Source: a virus
Lineage: Duplodnaviria; Caudoviricetes
DNA length: 34,461 nt
Virus record (IMG/VR): IMGVR_UViG_3300022407_005896
Span: 1 to 34,461 of that record
Strand: one strand, 5' to 3'
The notes below the pieces were generated by a model. That model was not told the DNA's origin, did not search any database, and saw nothing but the letters and a program-made list of their open reading frames with translations. The position numbers and the translations under genes were made by a program. Positions 1 through 25,430 of the stretch are shown here, piece by piece (positions within the stretch are counted from its first letter, which is position 1; each line of letters begins with the position of its first letter).

Positions 1-220
1 AAGAAGAAGAGAGAGCAGCCGTCGGAGGTGTCGTCGGAGTGCAGGGAGATGATGCCGTTGAACCACACAGCCAGGATTGACCCGGAATCTGCCGGAATTA
101 CCCGGATACTGGATACCCACTCAAGACGCTCTCAAGGGCAGGTACAGGCGAACTGACCCACTTTTCAGCGATCTGGCGGGTGGTTTGAATACCGGGGCGG
201 GTGTGGCGTCTGTCGGGGCC

Positions 221-1057
221 ATGGAACGAACCAAACCTATTCTTCGCTGGCCCGGTGGCAAAACCCGGCTGCTCTCTGACATCCTCCCCCTGATCCGGCC
301 ACACCGGCTGTACGTCGAAGCCTTCGCGGGCGGCCTGGCCGTGCTGCTCGCCAAGCCGCCATCGCCCGCCGAGATCGTGAACGATCTGAACGGAGACCTG
401 GTCAACCTCTACCGGCACGCCCAGTACCACCTCGATGCCCTGATTCGCGAGGTCGAGTTCACCCTCACAAGCCGGGCGGAGCTGACCGGCCTGATTGAGC
501 AGCCGGGTTTGACCGGCCTTCAGCAGGCGGCCCGCTACCTGCTGCGGAACCGGATCTCGTTCGGGGGCGGCGGCACGTCCTTCGCCGTTTCCAAAACGGG
601 CCAGCCGTCCCGCGAGGGCGTTCTGGAGCTGCTCAGGCGGTTCAACCGGCGCATGGACAAAGTGAGCGTCGAAAACCTGCCCTTCGAGCGGCTCTTCACG
701 AACTACGACAGCCCGGAGACCTACTGGTTTCTCGATCCGCCTTACTCGGTCGGGAAAATCGACGCTTACGACGCCTGGACGGATGCCCGCATGTCGGAAT
801 TCGCGGCCCGTGTGCATGATCTGAAAGGCGACTACATCGTCACGGTCAATGATTGCCCGCACAACCGGGCGCTGTTCGCTCAGGATGAAGTCACGCCGCT
901 GGTGACCAGGTCGGGAGCGGTGAACCGCCGCTTGCGGCCACAGGCCGCGTTTGGCGAGCTTTTGATTCGCCGCCGCATCAAAGCCGCCCGTGCGACGAAG
1001 GCACAAAAAACGGCCCGTTTCCGGGCCGTTGTGCCTGCTCTGAGGCTCGCCGCCTGA
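221..1057 (+). CDS. DNA adenine methyltransferase (Dam-like, D12 class, phage type)
   Basis: PILRWPGGK, YVEAFAGG (SAM binding), IVNDLN and FLDPPY catalytic motif; start placed at ATG 221. Confidence 0.92.
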   Translation: MERTKPILRWPGGKTRLLSDILPLIRPHRLYVEAFAGGLAVLLAKPPSPAEIVNDLNGDLVNLYRHAQYHLDALIREVEFTLTSRAELTGLIEQPGLTGLQQAARYLLRNRISFGGGGTSFAVSKTGQPSREGVLELLRRFNRRMDKVSVENLPFERLFTNYDSPETYWFLDPPYSVGKIDAYDAWTDARMSEFAARVHDLKGDYIVTVNDCPHNRALFAQDEVTPLVTRSGAVNRRLRPQAAFGELLIRRRIKAARATKAQKTARFRAVVPALRLAA

Positions 1058-6535: not shown

Positions 6536-6575
6536 AGGGTCAAAGGGTCAAAGGTCAAAAAGGTCAATCAGGTCA
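6536..6575. repeat. Short-period GGTCA-core tandem repeat between polX and transposase
   Basis: agggtcaaagggtcaaaggtcaaaaaggtcaatcaggtca. Confidence 0.8.
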
Positions 6576-7190
6576 CCGCTCCCAGGGTTCGAGGTAGGGC
6601 AGGCCAGCGAGGGCGAAGACATCCTGCTCACTGCGAGCGAGGATGAGACCGCCGGGAGAGAGGTCATCACGGCCCGTGGCCGCACAGGCCTTTTCAAGGT
6701 CATCCACCGTGAAGCCGCCGTGATACGGAGCCCAGGCGAGGCCGCGCTCTTGAGCAGCCTGAGAGAGGCGGATGTTATTCTCTTTGCTGCCCGTGCGGCA
6801 CACGAGGTAGTTCCAAAAGCGTGGCACCTGGATCGAGAAGAAATCCAGCGGGATGCCAGAGGCCACATGCACCGCCAGCTTGTTTTGCTTGCCCCAGGCC
6901 ATGCCACCCTGCGCATTGAGGCGCGGCTCAATGATGCGGTCTCTCAAGAGGCTCTCAAGAGCAGCGTCGGTGAGATCCCCTTCGCGGGTGAAGAGGCCAT
7001 CCTTCACCGGGCCAAACGCGGGCGAGTAAACGAATTCGATGTCGCCCACTTCCGCCTTGCGGCGGCGGAGAGATCCCGCCACACGCAGCCAGGGCTTTCC
7101 TTCACCATCTTTGGCACAGGCAGGCTCAAGGTGAGGAAGCAGCTCACGCACCACGGCCTTGGCTTCATCGGCGGAGAAACGGCGCTTCAT
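6573..7190 (-). CDS. polX: Minimal family X DNA polymerase (Pol beta-like palm and thumb only)
   Basis: VAGSLRR..VGDIEFV, IPLDFF, RTGSKENN, SEQDVFALAGLPYLEPWER; 205 aa; no PHP or 8-kDa lyase domain. Confidence 0.9.
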   Translation of the reverse strand: MKRRFSADEAKAVVRELLPHLEPACAKDGEGKPWLRVAGSLRRRKAEVGDIEFVYSPAFGPVKDGLFTREGDLTDAALESLLRDRIIEPRLNAQGGMAWGKQNKLAVHVASGIPLDFFSIQVPRFWNYLVCRTGSKENNIRLSQAAQERGLAWAPYHGGFTVDDLEKACAATGRDDLSPGGLILARSEQDVFALAGLPYLEPWER

Positions 7191-7444
7191 AGAACAGGCA
7201 CCTCCCGCTTGGTGAAGTTGTCTTCGATCAGGCTGAGCACCGAGAAGCCATTCGGATCGCTGGCGCGCTTCTCGTGAAGGTACACAGAGCCACAGCATTC
7301 GGTGCGGAATTCATTGCTCGCGCCATGCTGCACGAAGTCTGGCTGGTATTGACCGCAGATGCATTGGCAGCCTGTGAGAACGCCTCGACGCGTGGCCTCG
7401 GTGATGAGTTCGAGAAAGGGGTGGGTAGGTTCGCCGGAGTTCAT
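7187..7444 (-). CDS. Small Cys-rich (putative Zn-ribbon) protein
   Basis: CQCICG...TECCGS; ATGA overlaps at both ends. Confidence 0.65.
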   Translation of the reverse strand: MNSGEPTHPFLELITEATRRGVLTGCQCICGQYQPDFVQHGASNEFRTECCGSVYLHEKRASDPNGFSVLSLIEDNFTKREVPVL

Positions 7445-15236: not shown

Positions 15237-15288
15237 CCGCCTGCGGCGGAATGACAAAACCAGAAACCAGAAACCAGAATCCTTTCGC

Positions 15289-17535: not shown

Positions 17536-19725
17536 ATGAACTTTTCTACCCGCTTCAAAGCCGCTCTCGGCACCCTCTTCAATGTCAAAGGTTGGCAGCA
17601 GGCATGGGCACGCGGGGAGGATGTGGGCAGCCTCGGCGGCGGCTCATCATCCTCCCGCTTTCATGAGGCGGCCTCGCAATCCGCGTGGGTTTTCCGCTGC
17701 CTCCAGCTCATCGCCGGTCCCATCCGCAGCGTGCCGCTCGAATGGTATGAGCCTGGCTCCGATGAGCAGGATGAACTCAATGATCCAGAACTGAGCACCT
17801 TCTGGCGACGCCCCGCCATCACGAGCGGCGGTGTGCGCTTGAGCCTCGGGGATTTCATCGAACTTTCCTGCCACTCCATCGGCCTGCATGGGCAGGCGTG
17901 CTGGATTCTGGATGACACCTGGCTGACACGCGGCGGGGTGAAGTCTCCTTTAATCCTGGCCCGTGCGGATCGACTCACAGCCATCAAGCGAAACGACGAA
18001 CTCCTGGGCTGGCAGTTCATCGACGGCGCGGGCCGGGGTTATCAGCTTCTCCCTCAGCAGGTCATCCGGCCCCGCTTCCTCAATCCCTATGATGATGTCG
18101 AGGGCCTCGCCCCGATGGCCGCCGCCTGGAATGCCGCCGCTGGTGATCATGCCGCCGGAGTCTTCGCCCGAAACATCGCCAGTGCGAACGGAGACCAGGG
18201 CGTCTATGTGGTGAGCAAGAGCGGCACACTTACGCCAGAGCAGCGTGACCAGGTCATTGCCCAGCTCCGCCAGAAGGCCGCGCTCGCCAAGCGCGGGGAT
18301 TTCCGCGCTGCCTTCCTCACGGCGGATGTCTCCATTGAAGATCCGAAGATCAAGACGGTGGATGATGCCTTCTTGAATGGCCGCCACTTCTCGCGGGATG
18401 AGATCGCCGCCGCGTTTGGGGTGCCTGCCTCCATGCTGCAAAAGATGGAGAGCTATTCCATCGGCGCGGCCTCGGATCGCTACCGCCTCATTGATGAGAC
18501 CTGCGTTCCGATGGCGGCCCGCCTGGCCGAGGCCATGGGTGAGATTGAGCGACTCCGCACAGCGCGGGACCTGGAAGCCGCCTTTGATTGGTCCGCGCAC
18601 AGCGTCATGAGCCAGGTGCGCAATGAGAAGGTCAAAGCCGCCGCCGATGCCTGGAAGTGCGGCATTCCCTGGAAGGTGCTCAATGAGAGCATGGATCTGG
18701 GGCTGGATGAGTTTCCCGGCTATGACAAGGCGTGGTTGCCGATGAGCTTGGAGCCCGTGCCGGGCAATGAGGAAACCAGAATGAGGAATGAGGAATCAAG
18801 CCCGAAGCCCGAAGAGATCACCGAGCCGAAAGCCCTCCTTCGCTCCAACATCAAGACGCTGGATGGCATGGTGAGCGTGCTCGAAAAGCTCGCCGCACAG
18901 CCGTCAATCCCGTCAACCACGTCAACGAAGTCGGAAGCGAACGCCAAGCGCCTGCGCCTGTGGAAATCCCACATGGCCGCCCGAGCACCTTCGGAAAAGC
19001 TCTTCAAGGCGAAGATCACGAAAGCTCTCATGAAGGCCCGCGCCGAAACGCTGGGGAAGATCGAGAGCAGTGAGAAGGCGCTCGCAGGCATCCGCCAGCG
19101 CGGCGTGCTCGACCTCATCTTCTCGCTCGCCGATTTCACCGCCGCGCTGATCACCGATCTCCGCAAGGCTCACGAGCAAACCCTGGCCGATGCCACGGGG
19201 CAGTTCCTTTTGGAGATCGCCCGCGAGGATGATCCGTGGAAGATGGAAGCCACCCAGGTGCTCAACTTCCTCACTAGCCGCGAGAACCTCATTCGTGACG
19301 CCTCCCGCGAGATGCATCAGGACATCTTAAAGACCCTTGAAGAAGGTCTTCAGAAGGGCGAAACGACGCAGCAGCTCGCTTCCCGTGTGCGCACGGAGTT
19401 CAACGGCCTCAGCAATGAGCGGGCCGTGATGATCGCCACCACGGAGACCGGCGCGGCCTATGGAGCCGTCCGCCATGCGGCCACCGAAGAGCTGGGCATC
19501 CCCTTCAAGCAATGGCTGAGCGCTCAGGATGACCGCGTGCGGGCCACGCACCGCCGCATTGATGGCACCATCGTTCCCACGGGTGAACCCTTCCGCGTGC
19601 CTCTCAAGGATGGCGGCGAGGATCTCATGATGCACCCCTGTGACAGCGGCGGCAGCGCCGAGAACGTGATTCAGTGCCGCTGCGTGGAGATCCCGATGAT
19701 GGAAGAGGATGTGCCGGAAGAGTGA
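17536..19725 (+). CDS. HK97-family portal protein fused to Mu gpF/SPP1 gp7-like head morphogenesis domain
   Basis: VFRCLQLIA, GLAPM, EIAAAFGVPASML (portal); RAVMIATTE, KQWLSAQDDRVRATH, ENVIQCRC (gpF). Confidence 0.88.
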   Translation: MNFSTRFKAALGTLFNVKGWQQAWARGEDVGSLGGGSSSSRFHEAASQSAWVFRCLQLIAGPIRSVPLEWYEPGSDEQDELNDPELSTFWRRPAITSGGVRLSLGDFIELSCHSIGLHGQACWILDDTWLTRGGVKSPLILARADRLTAIKRNDELLGWQFIDGAGRGYQLLPQQVIRPRFLNPYDDVEGLAPMAAAWNAAAGDHAAGVFARNIASANGDQGVYVVSKSGTLTPEQRDQVIAQLRQKAALAKRGDFRAAFLTADVSIEDPKIKTVDDAFLNGRHFSRDEIAAAFGVPASMLQKMESYSIGAASDRYRLIDETCVPMAARLAEAMGEIERLRTARDLEAAFDWSAHSVMSQVRNEKVKAAADAWKCGIPWKVLNESMDLGLDEFPGYDKAWLPMSLEPVPGNEETRMRNEESSPKPEEITEPKALLRSNIKTLDGMVSVLEKLAAQPSIPSTTSTKSEANAKRLRLWKSHMAARAPSEKLFKAKITKALMKARAETLGKIESSEKALAGIRQRGVLDLIFSLADFTAALITDLRKAHEQTLADATGQFLLEIAREDDPWKMEATQVLNFLTSRENLIRDASREMHQDILKTLEEGLQKGETTQQLASRVRTEFNGLSNERAVMIATTETGAAYGAVRHAATEELGIPFKQWLSAQDDRVRATHRRIDGTIVPTGEPFRVPLKDGGEDLMMHPCDSGGSAENVIQCRCVEIPMMEEDVPEE

Positions 19726-19726
19726 G

Positions 19727-19820
19727 GGGGAACGAACCAGCTCTGCCGACGGCGGGCGTAACACCTACGCAACCATGAAAGACACCATTCGAGCCGTTGG
19801 CAGCAGTGTCATTGTTCGGC
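19727..19820 (-). mobile_element. attC-like recombination site 1
   Basis: Minus strand: GCCGAAC-aatgac-ACT[G]CTGCCAACGGC...GCCGTCGGCAGAGC-tggttc-GTTCCCC. Confidence 0.75.
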
Positions 19821-20020
19821 TTCGTCGTCGCCCTTTGCGCGATCAAGTCACCTACTGGCGCGAACTCTGGATGAAAGAGAATGTCGAGCGTCTGAGGCTA
19901 AAGGATGCCATTGAAATCACGCTGCGGCAAAATGCACATCTTACAGACGGTGACGTTTGCACACTCAAGATACTCAAGGACTCCATTCGTGAGCCGAACG
20001 CAGAGGTATCCCACAAATGA
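19775..20020 (+). CDS. Cassette 1 gene, hypothetical 81-aa protein
   Basis: ATG inside the site 1 loop, stop inside site 2; lower GC. Confidence 0.7.
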   Translation: MKDTIRAVGSSVIVRLRRRPLRDQVTYWRELWMKENVERLRLKDAIEITLRQNAHLTDGDVCTLKILKDSIREPNAEVSHK

Positions 20021-20095
20021 CAGCCGCCTCAACGCTTCCGCTTCGCACCAACACTGCCACGGCTGGCATTTGTTGGGATCACCGTCTTGTTCCCC
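19993..20095 (-). mobile_element. attC-like recombination site 2
   Basis: Minus strand: GGGGAAC-aagac-GGT[G]ATCCCA[A]CAAATGCCAGCCG...CGGCTGTCATTTGTGGGATACC-tctgc-GTTCGGC; two extrahelical bases. Confidence 0.85.
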
Positions 20096-20253
20096 TGCGG
20101 GGGGATGGCACGTTGCAGTAGCGCCAGCACGAAGGCCGAATGATCTGGGGTGGACGAGCCAGAGCACCAATCGTAGGCCGTGGATCGCGGCAACCCGAGG
20201 GCGATGAGGTCGGCGGGCTTGACGGGTATGGCAGCAAGAGAGTCGTGAAACAT
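20029..20253 (-). CDS. Cassette 2 small HTH (Cro/XRE-like) regulator
   Basis: KPADLIALGLPRSTAYDWCSGSSTP; ATG 20253. Confidence 0.7.
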   Translation of the reverse strand: MFHDSLAAIPVKPADLIALGLPRSTAYDWCSGSSTPDHSAFVLALLQRAIPPQGNKTVIPTNASRGSVGAKRKR

Positions 20254-20258
20254 GGCGC

Positions 20259-20328
20259 ACCCTACCACCAAAGAAAAATCCGACAATCGGAAAGTCGTTC
20301 TTGCAATGGTCCGACAATCGGACACAAT
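20259..20328. promoter_or_regulatory. Divergent leaderless promoters with two TCCGACAATCGGA operators
   Basis: Palindromes at 20279-20291 and 20310-20322; TTGCAA-16-CACAAT (+) and TTGTCG-16-TAGGGT (-). Confidence 0.7.
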
Positions 20329-20334
20329 ACCCGC

Positions 20335-20595
20335 ATGAGCGAACCAAAATCATTCCAAGAAAAATGCCTTTCAAAATTCAGTGCCGACTTCGAGGCGGCG
20401 GCGGACAAGATCGCGGCGAGGTCCAAGAAAGACCCCGAAGGTAAATTTGTGGTCTTCGTGGACGGCATGGATGGCGATGTGTCTGGGGACTGGATTGCGG
20501 CGACCATCGCGGTCACTTACGCCTTTCGCCACGGGGCCACCGAAGTAGTCCTCAAACGGTGGCCTGAGCAGGGGAACAAAGAGCTGAGCCGCTAG
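20335..20595 (+). CDS. Cassette 2 hypothetical 86-aa protein
   Basis: MSEPKSFQEK...QGNKELSR; ATG 6 nt after the -10 box; stop inside site 3. Confidence 0.7.
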   Translation: MSEPKSFQEKCLSKFSADFEAAADKIAARSKKDPEGKFVVFVDGMDGDVSGDWIAATIAVTYAFRHGATEVVLKRWPEQGNKELSR

Positions 20596-20635
20596 CGAGC
20601 CTTGGCGAGTCTGTCGGCTCCAGCGGGAGTTCTCT
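20571..20635 (-). mobile_element. attC-like recombination site 3
   Basis: Minus strand: AGAGAAC-tccc-GCT[G]GAGCCG...CGGCTCAGC-tcttt-GTTCCCC. Confidence 0.75.
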
Positions 20636-20648
20636 GGGGAATGGTATC

Positions 20649-20674
20649 AAAGCGGACGAGGGCGTCCGCGCTCC
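20649..20674. repeat. REP-like palindrome copy 2
   Basis: Identical to 14377-14402. Confidence 0.85.
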
Positions 20675-20682
20675 ACGATAAA

Positions 20683-20753
20683 TCATTCGGCCTTCCTCAT
20701 TCTGGTTTCGACATTCCCGCCGAAGGCGGGCCGTTCCCGCCTCCGGCGGGCCG
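20683..20753. repeat. Heptamer-period repeat with two CCCGCC-NNN-GGCGGG hairpins
   Basis: tcattcggccttcctcattctggtttcgacattcccgccgaaggcgggccgttcccgcctccggcgggccg; near copy at 25332-25382. Confidence 0.85.
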
Positions 20754-20754
20754 C

Positions 20755-20801
20755 TAACGGCGTTTGCGGCGGCGTGAAGGCTTTCACCCCTGCGGCACAC
20801 T
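20755..20801 (+). promoter_or_regulatory. Late promoter motif copy 2 (protease/capsid), leaderless
   Basis: TAACGGCgtttgCGGCGGCGTGAAG-16-CACACT-6-ATG. Confidence 0.75.
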
Positions 20802-20807
20802 GGCCGC

Positions 20808-21632
20808 ATGTCCGAACGCCTCGCCCGCCTCATCACGCCGGAAATCAAAGTCATCTCCGCGCAAGACTTCACCGTCGATTACATCGCCAGTGATGCCACC
20901 CTAGATTGCTACAACGAGGTGCTCATCGCGAAGGGGGTGAAGTTTGATCGCTTCGCCAAGAATGCGCCCTTTGTGGATTCGCATGATTACGGCACGATTG
21001 AGAAGCTGCTCGGCAGTGTGATCGAGTTCGGCGTGAAGGCCGGGAAGGTCGTGGAGCGCGTGAAGTGGGCGGCGGATGTCTCGCCCCTCGCCGCGCTGGG
21101 CTTCAAGCTCACGGAGAGCGGCCATCTCAGGGCCGTGAGTGTCGGCTTTATCCCGGTGAAGTATGCGTGGAGCGGCTCACCCGAGTTTGCGGCCATGGCG
21201 AAGGAATGCGGCATGGACATCGAGACCGCCGCGCAGTGCCGCTGCATTCACCGTGAGTGGATGCAGATCGAACTTTCCGCCTGCATCATCGGCGCGAACC
21301 CTTCCGCCCTGGCGAAGGCCTTCAAAGACGGCGCTCTTCAAGAGCGAGACCTGGCCGCCATCGGCTTTGCCGGTGACAATGAATTTGAGTTCCTGCAACT
21401 GGCCGCTGGCTCCTATGACGGTGCAGACGCTTTGCAGCGCCTGCAAATCAAGCTCGAACTCCAGCGCATCTACCGCGCCCGATCCCTTTCCTCCGCAAGC
21501 AGCAGCACGCCTCACCATCATGCGCCTGGCGGCGATGGCGAGGCCAAACGCCAGGCTGAACAGCGTGCGGCGGATCTCCGAGAACTCGCAGCGGCCCTGA
21601 AGGCCGTGCCGCGTGTTCCGGCGGCCTCGTGA
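20808..21632 (+). CDS. HK97-family prohead protease
   Basis: IASDATLD, PFVDSHD, LRAVSVGF, IELSACIIGANPSA. Confidence 0.9.
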   Translation: MSERLARLITPEIKVISAQDFTVDYIASDATLDCYNEVLIAKGVKFDRFAKNAPFVDSHDYGTIEKLLGSVIEFGVKAGKVVERVKWAADVSPLAALGFKLTESGHLRAVSVGFIPVKYAWSGSPEFAAMAKECGMDIETAAQCRCIHREWMQIELSACIIGANPSALAKAFKDGALQERDLAAIGFAGDNEFEFLQLAAGSYDGADALQRLQIKLELQRIYRARSLSSASSSTPHHHAPGGDGEAKRQAEQRAADLRELAAALKAVPRVPAAS

Positions 21633-23911: not shown

Positions 23912-23937
23912 AAAGCGGACGAGGGCGTCCGCACTCC
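23912..23937. repeat. REP-like palindrome copy 3
   Basis: AAAGCGGACGAGGGCGTCCGCACTCC. Confidence 0.85.
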
Positions 23938-23949
23938 ACGCTCAACGCC

Positions 23950-25260: not shown

Positions 25261-25382
25261 CCCGGCTCCGCCGGGAATGAGGAAACCAGAATGGCGAATG
25301 AGGAATAGCAGCGCGGACAGCCGCGTTCGCTTCATTCATCCTTCCTCATTCTGGTTTCGACATTCCCGCCTCCGGCGGGCCG
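25261..25382. repeat. Inverted pair of heptamer-period repeats with terminal GC hairpins
   Basis: gaatgaggaaaccagaatggcgaatgaggaat ... ttcattcatccttcctcattctggtttcgacattc. Confidence 0.85.
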
Positions 25383-25383
25383 C

Positions 25384-25430
25384 TAACGGCACTTCCGGCG
25401 GCGTGAAGCTAGGCGGCAAAAGCCTAGCAT
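25384..25430 (+). promoter_or_regulatory. Late promoter motif copy 3 (tail operon), leaderless
   Basis: TAACGGCacttcCGGCGGCGTGAAG-16-TAGCAT-7-ATG. Confidence 0.75.

Follow-up and report, generated by a model that had tools for sequence, protein, structure and literature searches.

Three hairpins between the portal and protease genes of a Mu-like phage appear to be integron attC-type sites whose genes lie on the recombining ("bottom") strand. We consider it probable that two gene cassettes were inserted there, one after another, between A and C of the AAC of the third hairpin, and that the integron integrase responsible was supplied in trans. Comparison of sequences is the source of the anatomy, polarity, crossover position, mobility and frame bias described below, as well as of the phage IntI genes seen behind other arrays.

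The window, meaning the whole stretch of DNA analyzed, is a linear virus record of 34,461 nt (IMGVR_UViG_3300022407_005896) whose ends may be missing. By its gene content, the record is a Mu-like transposable phage, with a transposase and a transposition protein on the minus strand and terminase, portal–MuF fusion, protease-like, capsid, and neck genes on the plus strand (Pfam, PHROG). Relatives of the protease with ~50% identity are named in Chthoniobacter and Luteolibacter, which points to a Verrucomicrobia host; a single-protein search for protease relatives returned none, and an alignment search did retrieve such relatives. The cassette array is placed between the portal stop at 19725 and the protease start at 20808 (Table 1). 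Elsewhere in the record, a 241-aa ORF with a DNA polymerase beta thumb domain (6573-7298, minus strand; PF14791, E 9e-9) lies just upstream of the Mu-type transposase, and a D12-class adenine methyltransferase at the left end (77-1057, plus strand) faces the early genes.

Table 1. Features of the cassette array and its two flanking genes in the window
Feature	Position	Strand	Details
Portal/Mu-F fusion gene, left neighbor	17536..19725	+	Pfam PF04860 + PF04233, PHROG 2662
Relay ORF, predicted, 18 codons	19722..19778	+	GTG overlapping portal TGA, in the frame of AAC 19731
Site 1, attC-type hairpin	19731..19816	- (top strand)	Spacing 9/9, extra base C19804, predicted crossover between 19732 and 19733
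Cassette 1 (266 bp)	19733..19998	+	Site-1 body + core
Cassette-1 gene, 81 aa	19775..20020	+	Starts in site-1 loop, ends in site 2
Site 2, attC-type hairpin	19997..20091	- (top strand)	Spacing 8/8, extra bases T20073 and C20080, predicted crossover between 19998 and 19999
Cassette 2 (578 bp)	19999..20576	+	Site-2 body + core
34-codon ORF from site-2 loop ATG	20017..20121	+	In-register antisense of HTH gene; GTT 20089 in frame
HTH-like regulator, 74 aa	20029..20253	-	Tail antisense in site-2 body; conserved in 10 viral loci
Two 13-bp palindromes, predicted operators	20279..20322	.	At 20279 and 20310
Cassette-2 gene, 86 aa	20335..20595	+	Crosses AAC 20575 in frame, stop from site 3
Site 3, short, apparently resident terminal hairpin	20575..20631	- (top strand)	Spacing 8/7, extra base C20621, predicted crossover between 20576 and 20577
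Prohead protease-like gene, right neighbor	20808..21632	+	PHROG 617/4523; between portal and capsid genes

Anatomy of the hairpins

A finder pattern consisting of AAC, 8 or 9 nt, and a 6-bp stem, followed on the other arm by the stem, an extra base, 7-9 nt, and GTT, matched the 34 kb exactly three times, all on one strand (AAC at 19731, 19997, and 20575). Twenty order-2 Markov controls of the window yielded no match on either strand. All coordinates and frames given in a preliminary description of this array were correct on recheck. Each site has an R box with AAC and GTT at the hairpin foot and a paired 6-bp L-box stem, with one G-T pair in site 1; this stem, which the pattern constrains only loosely, was perfectly paired in 125 of 133 sites of the first viral set. 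Extrahelical bases in attC sites number two or three, lie on one arm, and usually begin with G; the R and L boxes are separated by a spacer of 5-6 nt. All three hairpins have an unpaired extra base on the right arm of the plus strand, with two such bases in site 2 and one clear base each in sites 1 and 3. The first extra base is C in every case, where attC usually has G; C also occupies this position in 85 of 195 viral and 28 of 128 bacterial sites. The R–L spacers measure 6/6, 5/5, and 5/4 nt in sites 1, 2, and 3, and the overall spacing of sites 1 (9/9) and 3 (8/7) is one base off the commonly quoted value.

In the available text of PMC5027507, cleavage occurs between A and C of the bottom-strand AAC, and the extra bases lie near L''. 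On that anatomy, an extra base on the right arm of the plus strand marks plus as the bottom, recombining strand. Folding energy relative to shuffled sequences was significant in site 2 only (z -3.6 on plus; site 1, z -1.75; site 3, z +0.6) and did not separate the two strands, nor did loop purine content separate viral from bacterial sites (0.57 vs 0.56). Site 1 belongs to a family with members in four other viral contigs (L140, L150, L207, L228), and near-identical copies of site 2 follow different upstream genes in five loci (L003, L008, L012, L025, L062). Taken by their anatomy, the three hairpins would be classed as integron attC-type sites with genes on the bottom strand.

Polarity of the genes relative to the sites

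The preliminary description had read the sites as reversed relative to late transcription, a claim that is borne out by a larger collection. We compared 195 distinct sites from 124 viral loci, chance matches having been removed by the finder, with a bacterial control of 128 sites from 75 loci in a sample of prokaryote genomes (2 of 64 parts). To assign genes to the flanks, we used a codon model of our own that had learned from the long ORFs of these loci and that classified 101 of 104 test segments of window genes correctly. Among the 195 viral flanks, 58 upstream and 53 downstream received no call and 13 and 18, respectively, were too short; among the 128 bacterial flanks, 79 upstream and 91 downstream received no call. 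With the bottom strand written as plus, upstream genes were 114 plus vs 10 minus in the viral set and 7 vs 36 in the bacterial set (Fisher p 2e-20), and downstream genes were 117 vs 7 and 7 vs 20 (Fisher p 1e-13), p-values that overstate independence because site families are related. The intI gene of five bacterial loci (L255, L259, L266, L271, L279) likewise lies on the strand written as plus. On these counts, the reversal of genes relative to sites appears real.

One way to obtain such an arrangement would be the backward insertion of ordinary host cassettes by top-strand recombination, followed by drift. Top-strand insertion does happen at low frequency, according to the accessible part of PMC5027507, and a Verrucomicrobiae genome (L246) contains host-type sites of 8/8 spacing that have antisense genes. 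Backward insertion, however, would invert site and gene together, whereas these genes run opposite to the orientation expected from their own site; moreover, the start lies inside the loop in 72 of 113 genes, and array sites and intI share one polarity. We regard this origin as highly improbable, and the comparison largely excludes it.

Cassette boundaries and mobility

Each cassette combines a site body with the core that follows it, and the core ends form inverted repeats of 8 bp in cassette 1 (19814-19821/19992-19999) and 10 bp in cassette 2 (20089-20098/20568-20577). Across 69 viral cores, 5.36 of 7 bases pair between the two ends vs 3.84 within a site, and 42 bacterial cores give 5.38 vs 4.13 of 7. 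Complementary core ends of this kind would be the mark of excised circles. Both cassettes of the window show them, and both occur in different neighborhoods. Three loci (L157, L158, L225) match 19730-19999 at 84% and diverge at AAC, while in L541 the cassette 1 core sits between other sites. Gene-1 proteins continue differently after EPN in every case (seven homologs with seven tails; 6 homologs of the cassette-1 gene at 83-93% identity, all with different tails), and site 2 is preceded by a different gene in each relative mapped.

The position of insertion can be read from portal–protease junctions. Of 89 distinct junctions, only three contained a site that the finder could detect. One is that of the window; the others belong to the closest two relatives, L442 (61%) and L363 (60%), which each carry a single short hairpin of the site-3 type without cassettes. 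The portal TGA lies 5 nt ahead of AAC 19731 in the window, and the empty junction of L442 has the same TGA, 5 nt, and AAC. A further locus missed by the junction count, L447, has other cassettes ahead of a near-copy of site 3. The empty junctions together with L447 indicate that cassettes were added at the AAC end on the plus strand, with the resident body pushed toward the protease, so that the short hairpin of site 3 appears to be the resident one, with the two cassettes of the window inserted between A and C of its AAC. These empty junctions and the seven tails also support the earlier proposal that a cassette carries its site in front and takes its tail and stop codon from the site that comes next.

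The linkage between body and core is incomplete. When two sites had nothing but their downstream flank in common, the bodies were less than 80% alike in 8 of 15 pairs, and linkage by flank sharing is a weak test (7 of 15 vs 1 of 4 pairs). The loop of gene 1 in the window differs from that of L157, and the HTH core lies under other bodies in L535 and L536; such changed bodies before a given core suggest that exchange also occurs on the GTT side. No excision joint was found among the contigs of 4 of 5 listed sequencing runs. Three of these runs contained relatives ~91% alike, with portal and protease covered, the array not covered, and no joining contig, and they are not counted as evidence.

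A 140-nt contig from run X1, which may be the source sample of the window, aligns to 20574-20626 and represents a second body of the site-3 type with other sequence joined just before AAC. The portal–protease junctions in L363-L511 form a general insertion spot in this phage group, with gaps ranging from overlap to 1.7 kb (median, 131 nt); in most of them, no hairpin was detected. Between genes, the record contains REP-like repeats, which are dispersed, and short purine/pyrimidine tandem repeats (20649-20779, 23912-23945, 25261-25408, 18763-18796, 15247-15280); similar intergenic repeats follow several site-3-type hairpins in other phages, where they break assemblies.

Reading frames through the sites

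With duplicate flanks removed, the 114 plus-strand upstream genes were examined for how they enter a site. Seventy, including two from the window, cross AAC in frame, a single gene crosses out of frame, 35 end at the TAA of TAAC, and 8 end earlier; where no T precedes AAC, 44 of 44 genes cross in frame. The suggestion that AAC is read in frame therefore extends to the collected sites, where 70 of 71 crossing genes conform. Its stronger form, that every gene entering a site crosses AAC in frame, is correct for the plus-strand genes at 19997 and 20575 and has no such case at site 1, which the portal gene does not enter, its stop being at 19725. The minus-strand HTH gene had been offered as a further case and does cross the reverse-complement AAC at 20091 in frame, but this is the trait of a single core family and adds no independent instance.

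Frame statistics were computed on 142 viral sites deduplicated by body and 74 bacterial sites. A stop of the AAC frame lies inside the body in 132 of 142 viral sites (101 and 75 for the other frames) and in 46 of 74 bacterial sites. That stop takes the form of ATGA in 51 of 142 viral sites (5 and 21 for the other frames) vs 2 of 74 bacterial sites, which matches the enrichment anticipated in the preliminary description. The TGA falls in the AAC frame for 63 of 102 occurrences of any ATGA (p 4e-9) and, when ATGA overlaps a start, for 32 of 47 deduplicated sites, with one third expected (p 1e-6). Where the loop has an ATG, it is in the same frame as the gene downstream in 72 of 113 cases, compared with 46 of 226 for the wrong frames. 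These 72 loop-start genes include 29 that overlap the stop as ATGA and 22 more that begin 4-11 nt before or 2-8 nt after it. The exit GTT, by contrast, had been proposed to be in frame as well, and as a rule this was rejected: the three frames are occupied 31/14/18 times among 63 loop-start genes and 17/3/18 times where no stop closes a frame. A crossover at AAC predicts exactly this difference, with the AAC frame common to all cassettes and the GTT frame private to each.

These biases could arise in the same reversed cassettes with no selected coupling, the frame bias reflecting the need for a stop and ATGA being a common phage overlap. ATG followed by A is common at gene starts, only the 29 genes above have ATGA, 35 of 114 upstream genes terminate with a TAA of their own, and cassette 2 has a predicted promoter. 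Such a reading is possible, though we lean against it: the start-overlapping ATGA would not be expected to favor the AAC frame at 32 of 47 sites, and the 22 additional starts also lie close to a stop. Under the preferred reading, the overlap likely couples translation, but the claim that any order of cassettes gives a coupled operon overreaches. The overlapping arrangement exists in 29 of 72 loop-start genes, while 35 of 114 upstream genes bring their own TAA; within the window, cassette 2 has its own predicted promoter and the GTT of site 2 is an antisense shadow of the HTH gene.

Genes of the array

The AAC-19731 frame ends at TGA 19776-19778, which overlaps ATG 19775, and the exit GTT at 19814 is in frame with that ATG. 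The relay ORF terminates at this TGA, and the same GTG frame is present in the empty relative L442; the ORF is predicted to link translation of the portal to that of gene 1. No Shine-Dalgarno-like motif is evident before ATG 19775. The cassette-1 gene then crosses AAC 19997 in frame and ends at TGA 20018-20020, overlapping ATG 20017 in the loop of site 2.

The 34-codon ORF opened by this second ATG received no coding call from the codon model. It is antisense to the HTH gene, so its in-frame GTT and the in-frame AAC of the HTH gene are one fact. The ORF shares its frame with the gene at 20335, from which a single TAG at 20119 separates it, and its counterparts in relatives extend for 96-219 codons. 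Across the window and relatives including L529, L530, L534, and L535, 5 of 6 mapped HTH cassettes have the loop ATG in frame with a plus-strand gene ~250 nt away, and 4 keep this frame open through the antisense HTH gene and the operators; in the window, a single TAG interrupts it. The frame may serve read-through, or the spacing may be inherited.

Cassette 2 has a divergent layout, with an HTH-like gene on the minus strand, two palindromes, and a plus-strand gene that differs between relatives. None of the four array ORFs matched Pfam or PHROGs; the HTH fold of the 74-aa protein is a lead only, from Atlas neighbors HTH_3/HTH_23 at 0.89-0.91. The palindrome pair recurs in 6 of 6 mapped cassettes, and a weak sigma-70-like promoter that would serve the gene at 20335 has the copy at 20310 in its spacer. 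A sigma-70 consensus scan of 19650-20850 gave no match, the promoter of 20335 being unscored. The plus-strand gene ends at TAG 20593 without an ATGA overlap, and its homolog P0128 differs right after the Asn. As a separate observation, operator sequence and predicted HTH recognition helix change together: PRST occurs with TCCG..CGGA (window, L025, L062) and PRGT with TCGG..CCGA (L003, L012), the five cases being related.

Source of the integrase and the role of site 3

No tyrosine recombinase was found in this linear record, the ends of which may be missing (no PF00589 match at E<=1), and a tblastn search with 8 phage IntI proteins returned nothing below E 0.6. Fifty site-bearing viral records, chosen among the longer ones, were screened for IntI. 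A full-length TIGR02249 match occurred in 8, with 5 over the cut-off, and 42 had none. All 8 IntI genes start 31-65 nt behind the AAC of the last core on the strand of the cassette genes, and a non-hairpin, attI-like end lies ahead of IntI in each of the 8 records. By position, these arrays appear to keep the bacterial intI-attI-attC geometry with only the cargo flipped. A control of 50 protease-relative records, less complete than the test set, gave 0 over the cut-off, 1 full-length, and 2 truncated matches. Among Mu-like relatives, L522 has an intact IntI-like gene and two others have truncated copies. In the window, the attI-type double-stranded site beside intI is absent and the array ends in a hairpin, site 3; the enzyme that swaps cassettes here is likely a borrowed integrase.

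Several observations surround these genes. Phage-encoded IntI-like genes stand behind the array and co-directional with it in L512-L519 and L522-L524, and those of L519 and L522 have a shortened IntI insertion and a long branch. In record G028 (L062/L534, L514), a second attI-like end far from intI terminates the HTH cassette, and cassette 1 of L157 is closed by a comparable non-hairpin sequence, followed by a terminase-like gene. A tree of IntI proteins groups 8 of 9 phage proteins (99/97); with its long branches and a sample without close host IntI, the tree does not establish a phage-specific IntI clade. A broader proposal holds that phages run a mirror-image branch of the integron. In it, a phage-adapted IntI clade would be transcribed as the last array gene, the hairpins would also provide start, N-terminus, and, in a fixed frame, the stop of the neighboring gene, and short stop-only docks would let IntI-free phages load cassettes into the late operon with whatever IntI the cell contains. 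This proposal strikes us as evenly balanced between right and wrong.

Movement of the hairpins by homologous or illegitimate recombination between arms, or by a non-IntI recombinase, would account for a record without a recombinase, for the 42 of 50 site-bearing records without full-length IntI, and for the loops and arms exchanged on the GTT side in some relatives. It would not account for breakpoints at the AAC triplet between otherwise unrelated sequences, for core ends that pair as in excised cassette circles, or for IntI genes behind arrays in 8 records with bacterial-type geometry of intI and site. We consider such movement quite improbable and retain insertion by an integron integrase as the preferred reading; the location of breakpoints at AAC, on what is predicted to be the bottom strand, indirectly supports recombination of a folded bottom strand by IntI.

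A scan for hairpins of the site-3 type returned 30 loci with 25 distinct matches, of which 7 failed the stem test and 18 were kept. All 18 have a stop in the AAC frame, and one has an ATG. A downstream site within the fetched flank was found in 0 of 18 (17 with >=800 nt) vs 39 of 88 ordinary sites. The paired 6-bp stem persists in the class despite different sequences, and the empty hairpin of L442 is self-complementary at its core. No IntI over the cut-off was found in 28 dock-class records, 5 of them near complete and some of them chance matches. Site 3 is thus likely a resident hairpin dock for a borrowed integrase, the weaker part of our account. Instead of a dedicated dock, site 3 could be a decayed cassette site or a gene-less cassette, as its weak fold (z +0.6), its short spacer, and the upstream site detected for 3 of the 18 hairpins of the class would allow. 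We find this unlikely given that the stem stays paired across different sequences, that no member is followed by a site, that the stop is always supplied, and that the core of L442 is self-complementary when empty.

Proposed mechanism and significance

In the mechanism that we propose, an integron integrase, likely provided in trans, would have inserted two cassettes successively behind the portal gene, at the AAC of site 3. Since a cassette would comprise a site body and the core behind it, a gene may start in its own loop in any frame, and the following site, whichever it is, would supply the final codons and the stop. The AAC frame would be the sole shared convention, in which sites keep a stop, often as an ATGA overlapping the next start; without this overlap, the hairpin would hinder translation, which is likely coupled across it in this way. 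What we infer comprises the acting enzyme, ongoing activity, translation and its coupling, and the use of site 3 as a dock.

Integrons have been treated as bacterial devices, and their strand choice has been seen as pointing genes away from the integrase. The same chemistry appears to have been reused by phages with the genes flipped. The result would be an order-tolerant, shared pool of accessory genes, including many DNA methyltransferases, regulators, and small unknown proteins, that plugs into phage operons with the frame maintained. This offers a testable mechanism for part of phage mosaicism and would explain the variable N- and C-termini of many small phage proteins. It also provides natural examples of protein-coding attC sites and suggests that annotation tools expecting the canonical orientation may misread such arrays. 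According to the available portion of PMC2095811, attC sites, unlike attI, are recombined by several integrases; on that basis, a hairpin dock would let an integrase-less phage borrow any host IntI.

Comparison with known systems

A search of openly accessible main-text literature retrieved no account of reversed, translated sites or of co-directional phage intI. The closest precedent is Qi et al. 2023 (PMC9892861), who described intI-less attC clusters in phages with DNA methyltransferase cargo, mostly typical of bacterial arrays, and found that IntI1 recombined five of six tested phage sites. The main text of that work is silent on reversed genes, in-frame crossovers, loop starts, a hairpin dock, and phage-specific intI. 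With three sites in 900 bp by our own finder, the present array corresponds to a CALIN, defined by at least two attC sites within 3-4 kb and no intI. As a complete integron it would require intI in cis, which is absent from this record, the ends of which may be missing. It also departs from the canonical cassette order of a top-strand gene followed by attC, its genes being on the bottom strand and preceded by the site. The array therefore appears to work like an integron cassette array and passes as a CALIN but fails the canonical gene orientation.

With bacterial integrons, the array shares the hairpin with an AAC/GTT core, the L-box stem, the extra bases on one arm, the complementary core ends, and a crossover that, by the part of PMC5027507 available, splits the bottom-strand AAC between A and C. 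Where intI is present, it lies on the bottom strand in both systems and is directed away from the array. The phage array differs in having its genes on the bottom strand, with the same direction as intI in phage arrays, and each site ahead of its gene. The crossover falls inside coding sequence in one frame, and starts and stops are written in the loops. Read-through from the phage operon seems to make a Pc unnecessary. Translation across a site has a parallel in ORF-11 of attI1, which, in the available text of PMC8876359, takes its stop from the neighboring cassette; short ORFs in attC and translational coupling are documented there as well. As far as that text goes, both systems have a reading frame that crosses the crossover and a stop from the neighboring cassette, but ORF-11 is a short platform leader, or the ORF an occasional one on the top strand, whereas here, at most sites, the cargo genes themselves cross, on the bottom strand. 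Finally, the accessible part of the attG study (bioRxiv 10.1101/2022.09.11.507474) reports that IntI can place cassettes at genome sites outside the integron; unlike a plain genomic site, the target in this phage is a folded, conserved, and reused hairpin.
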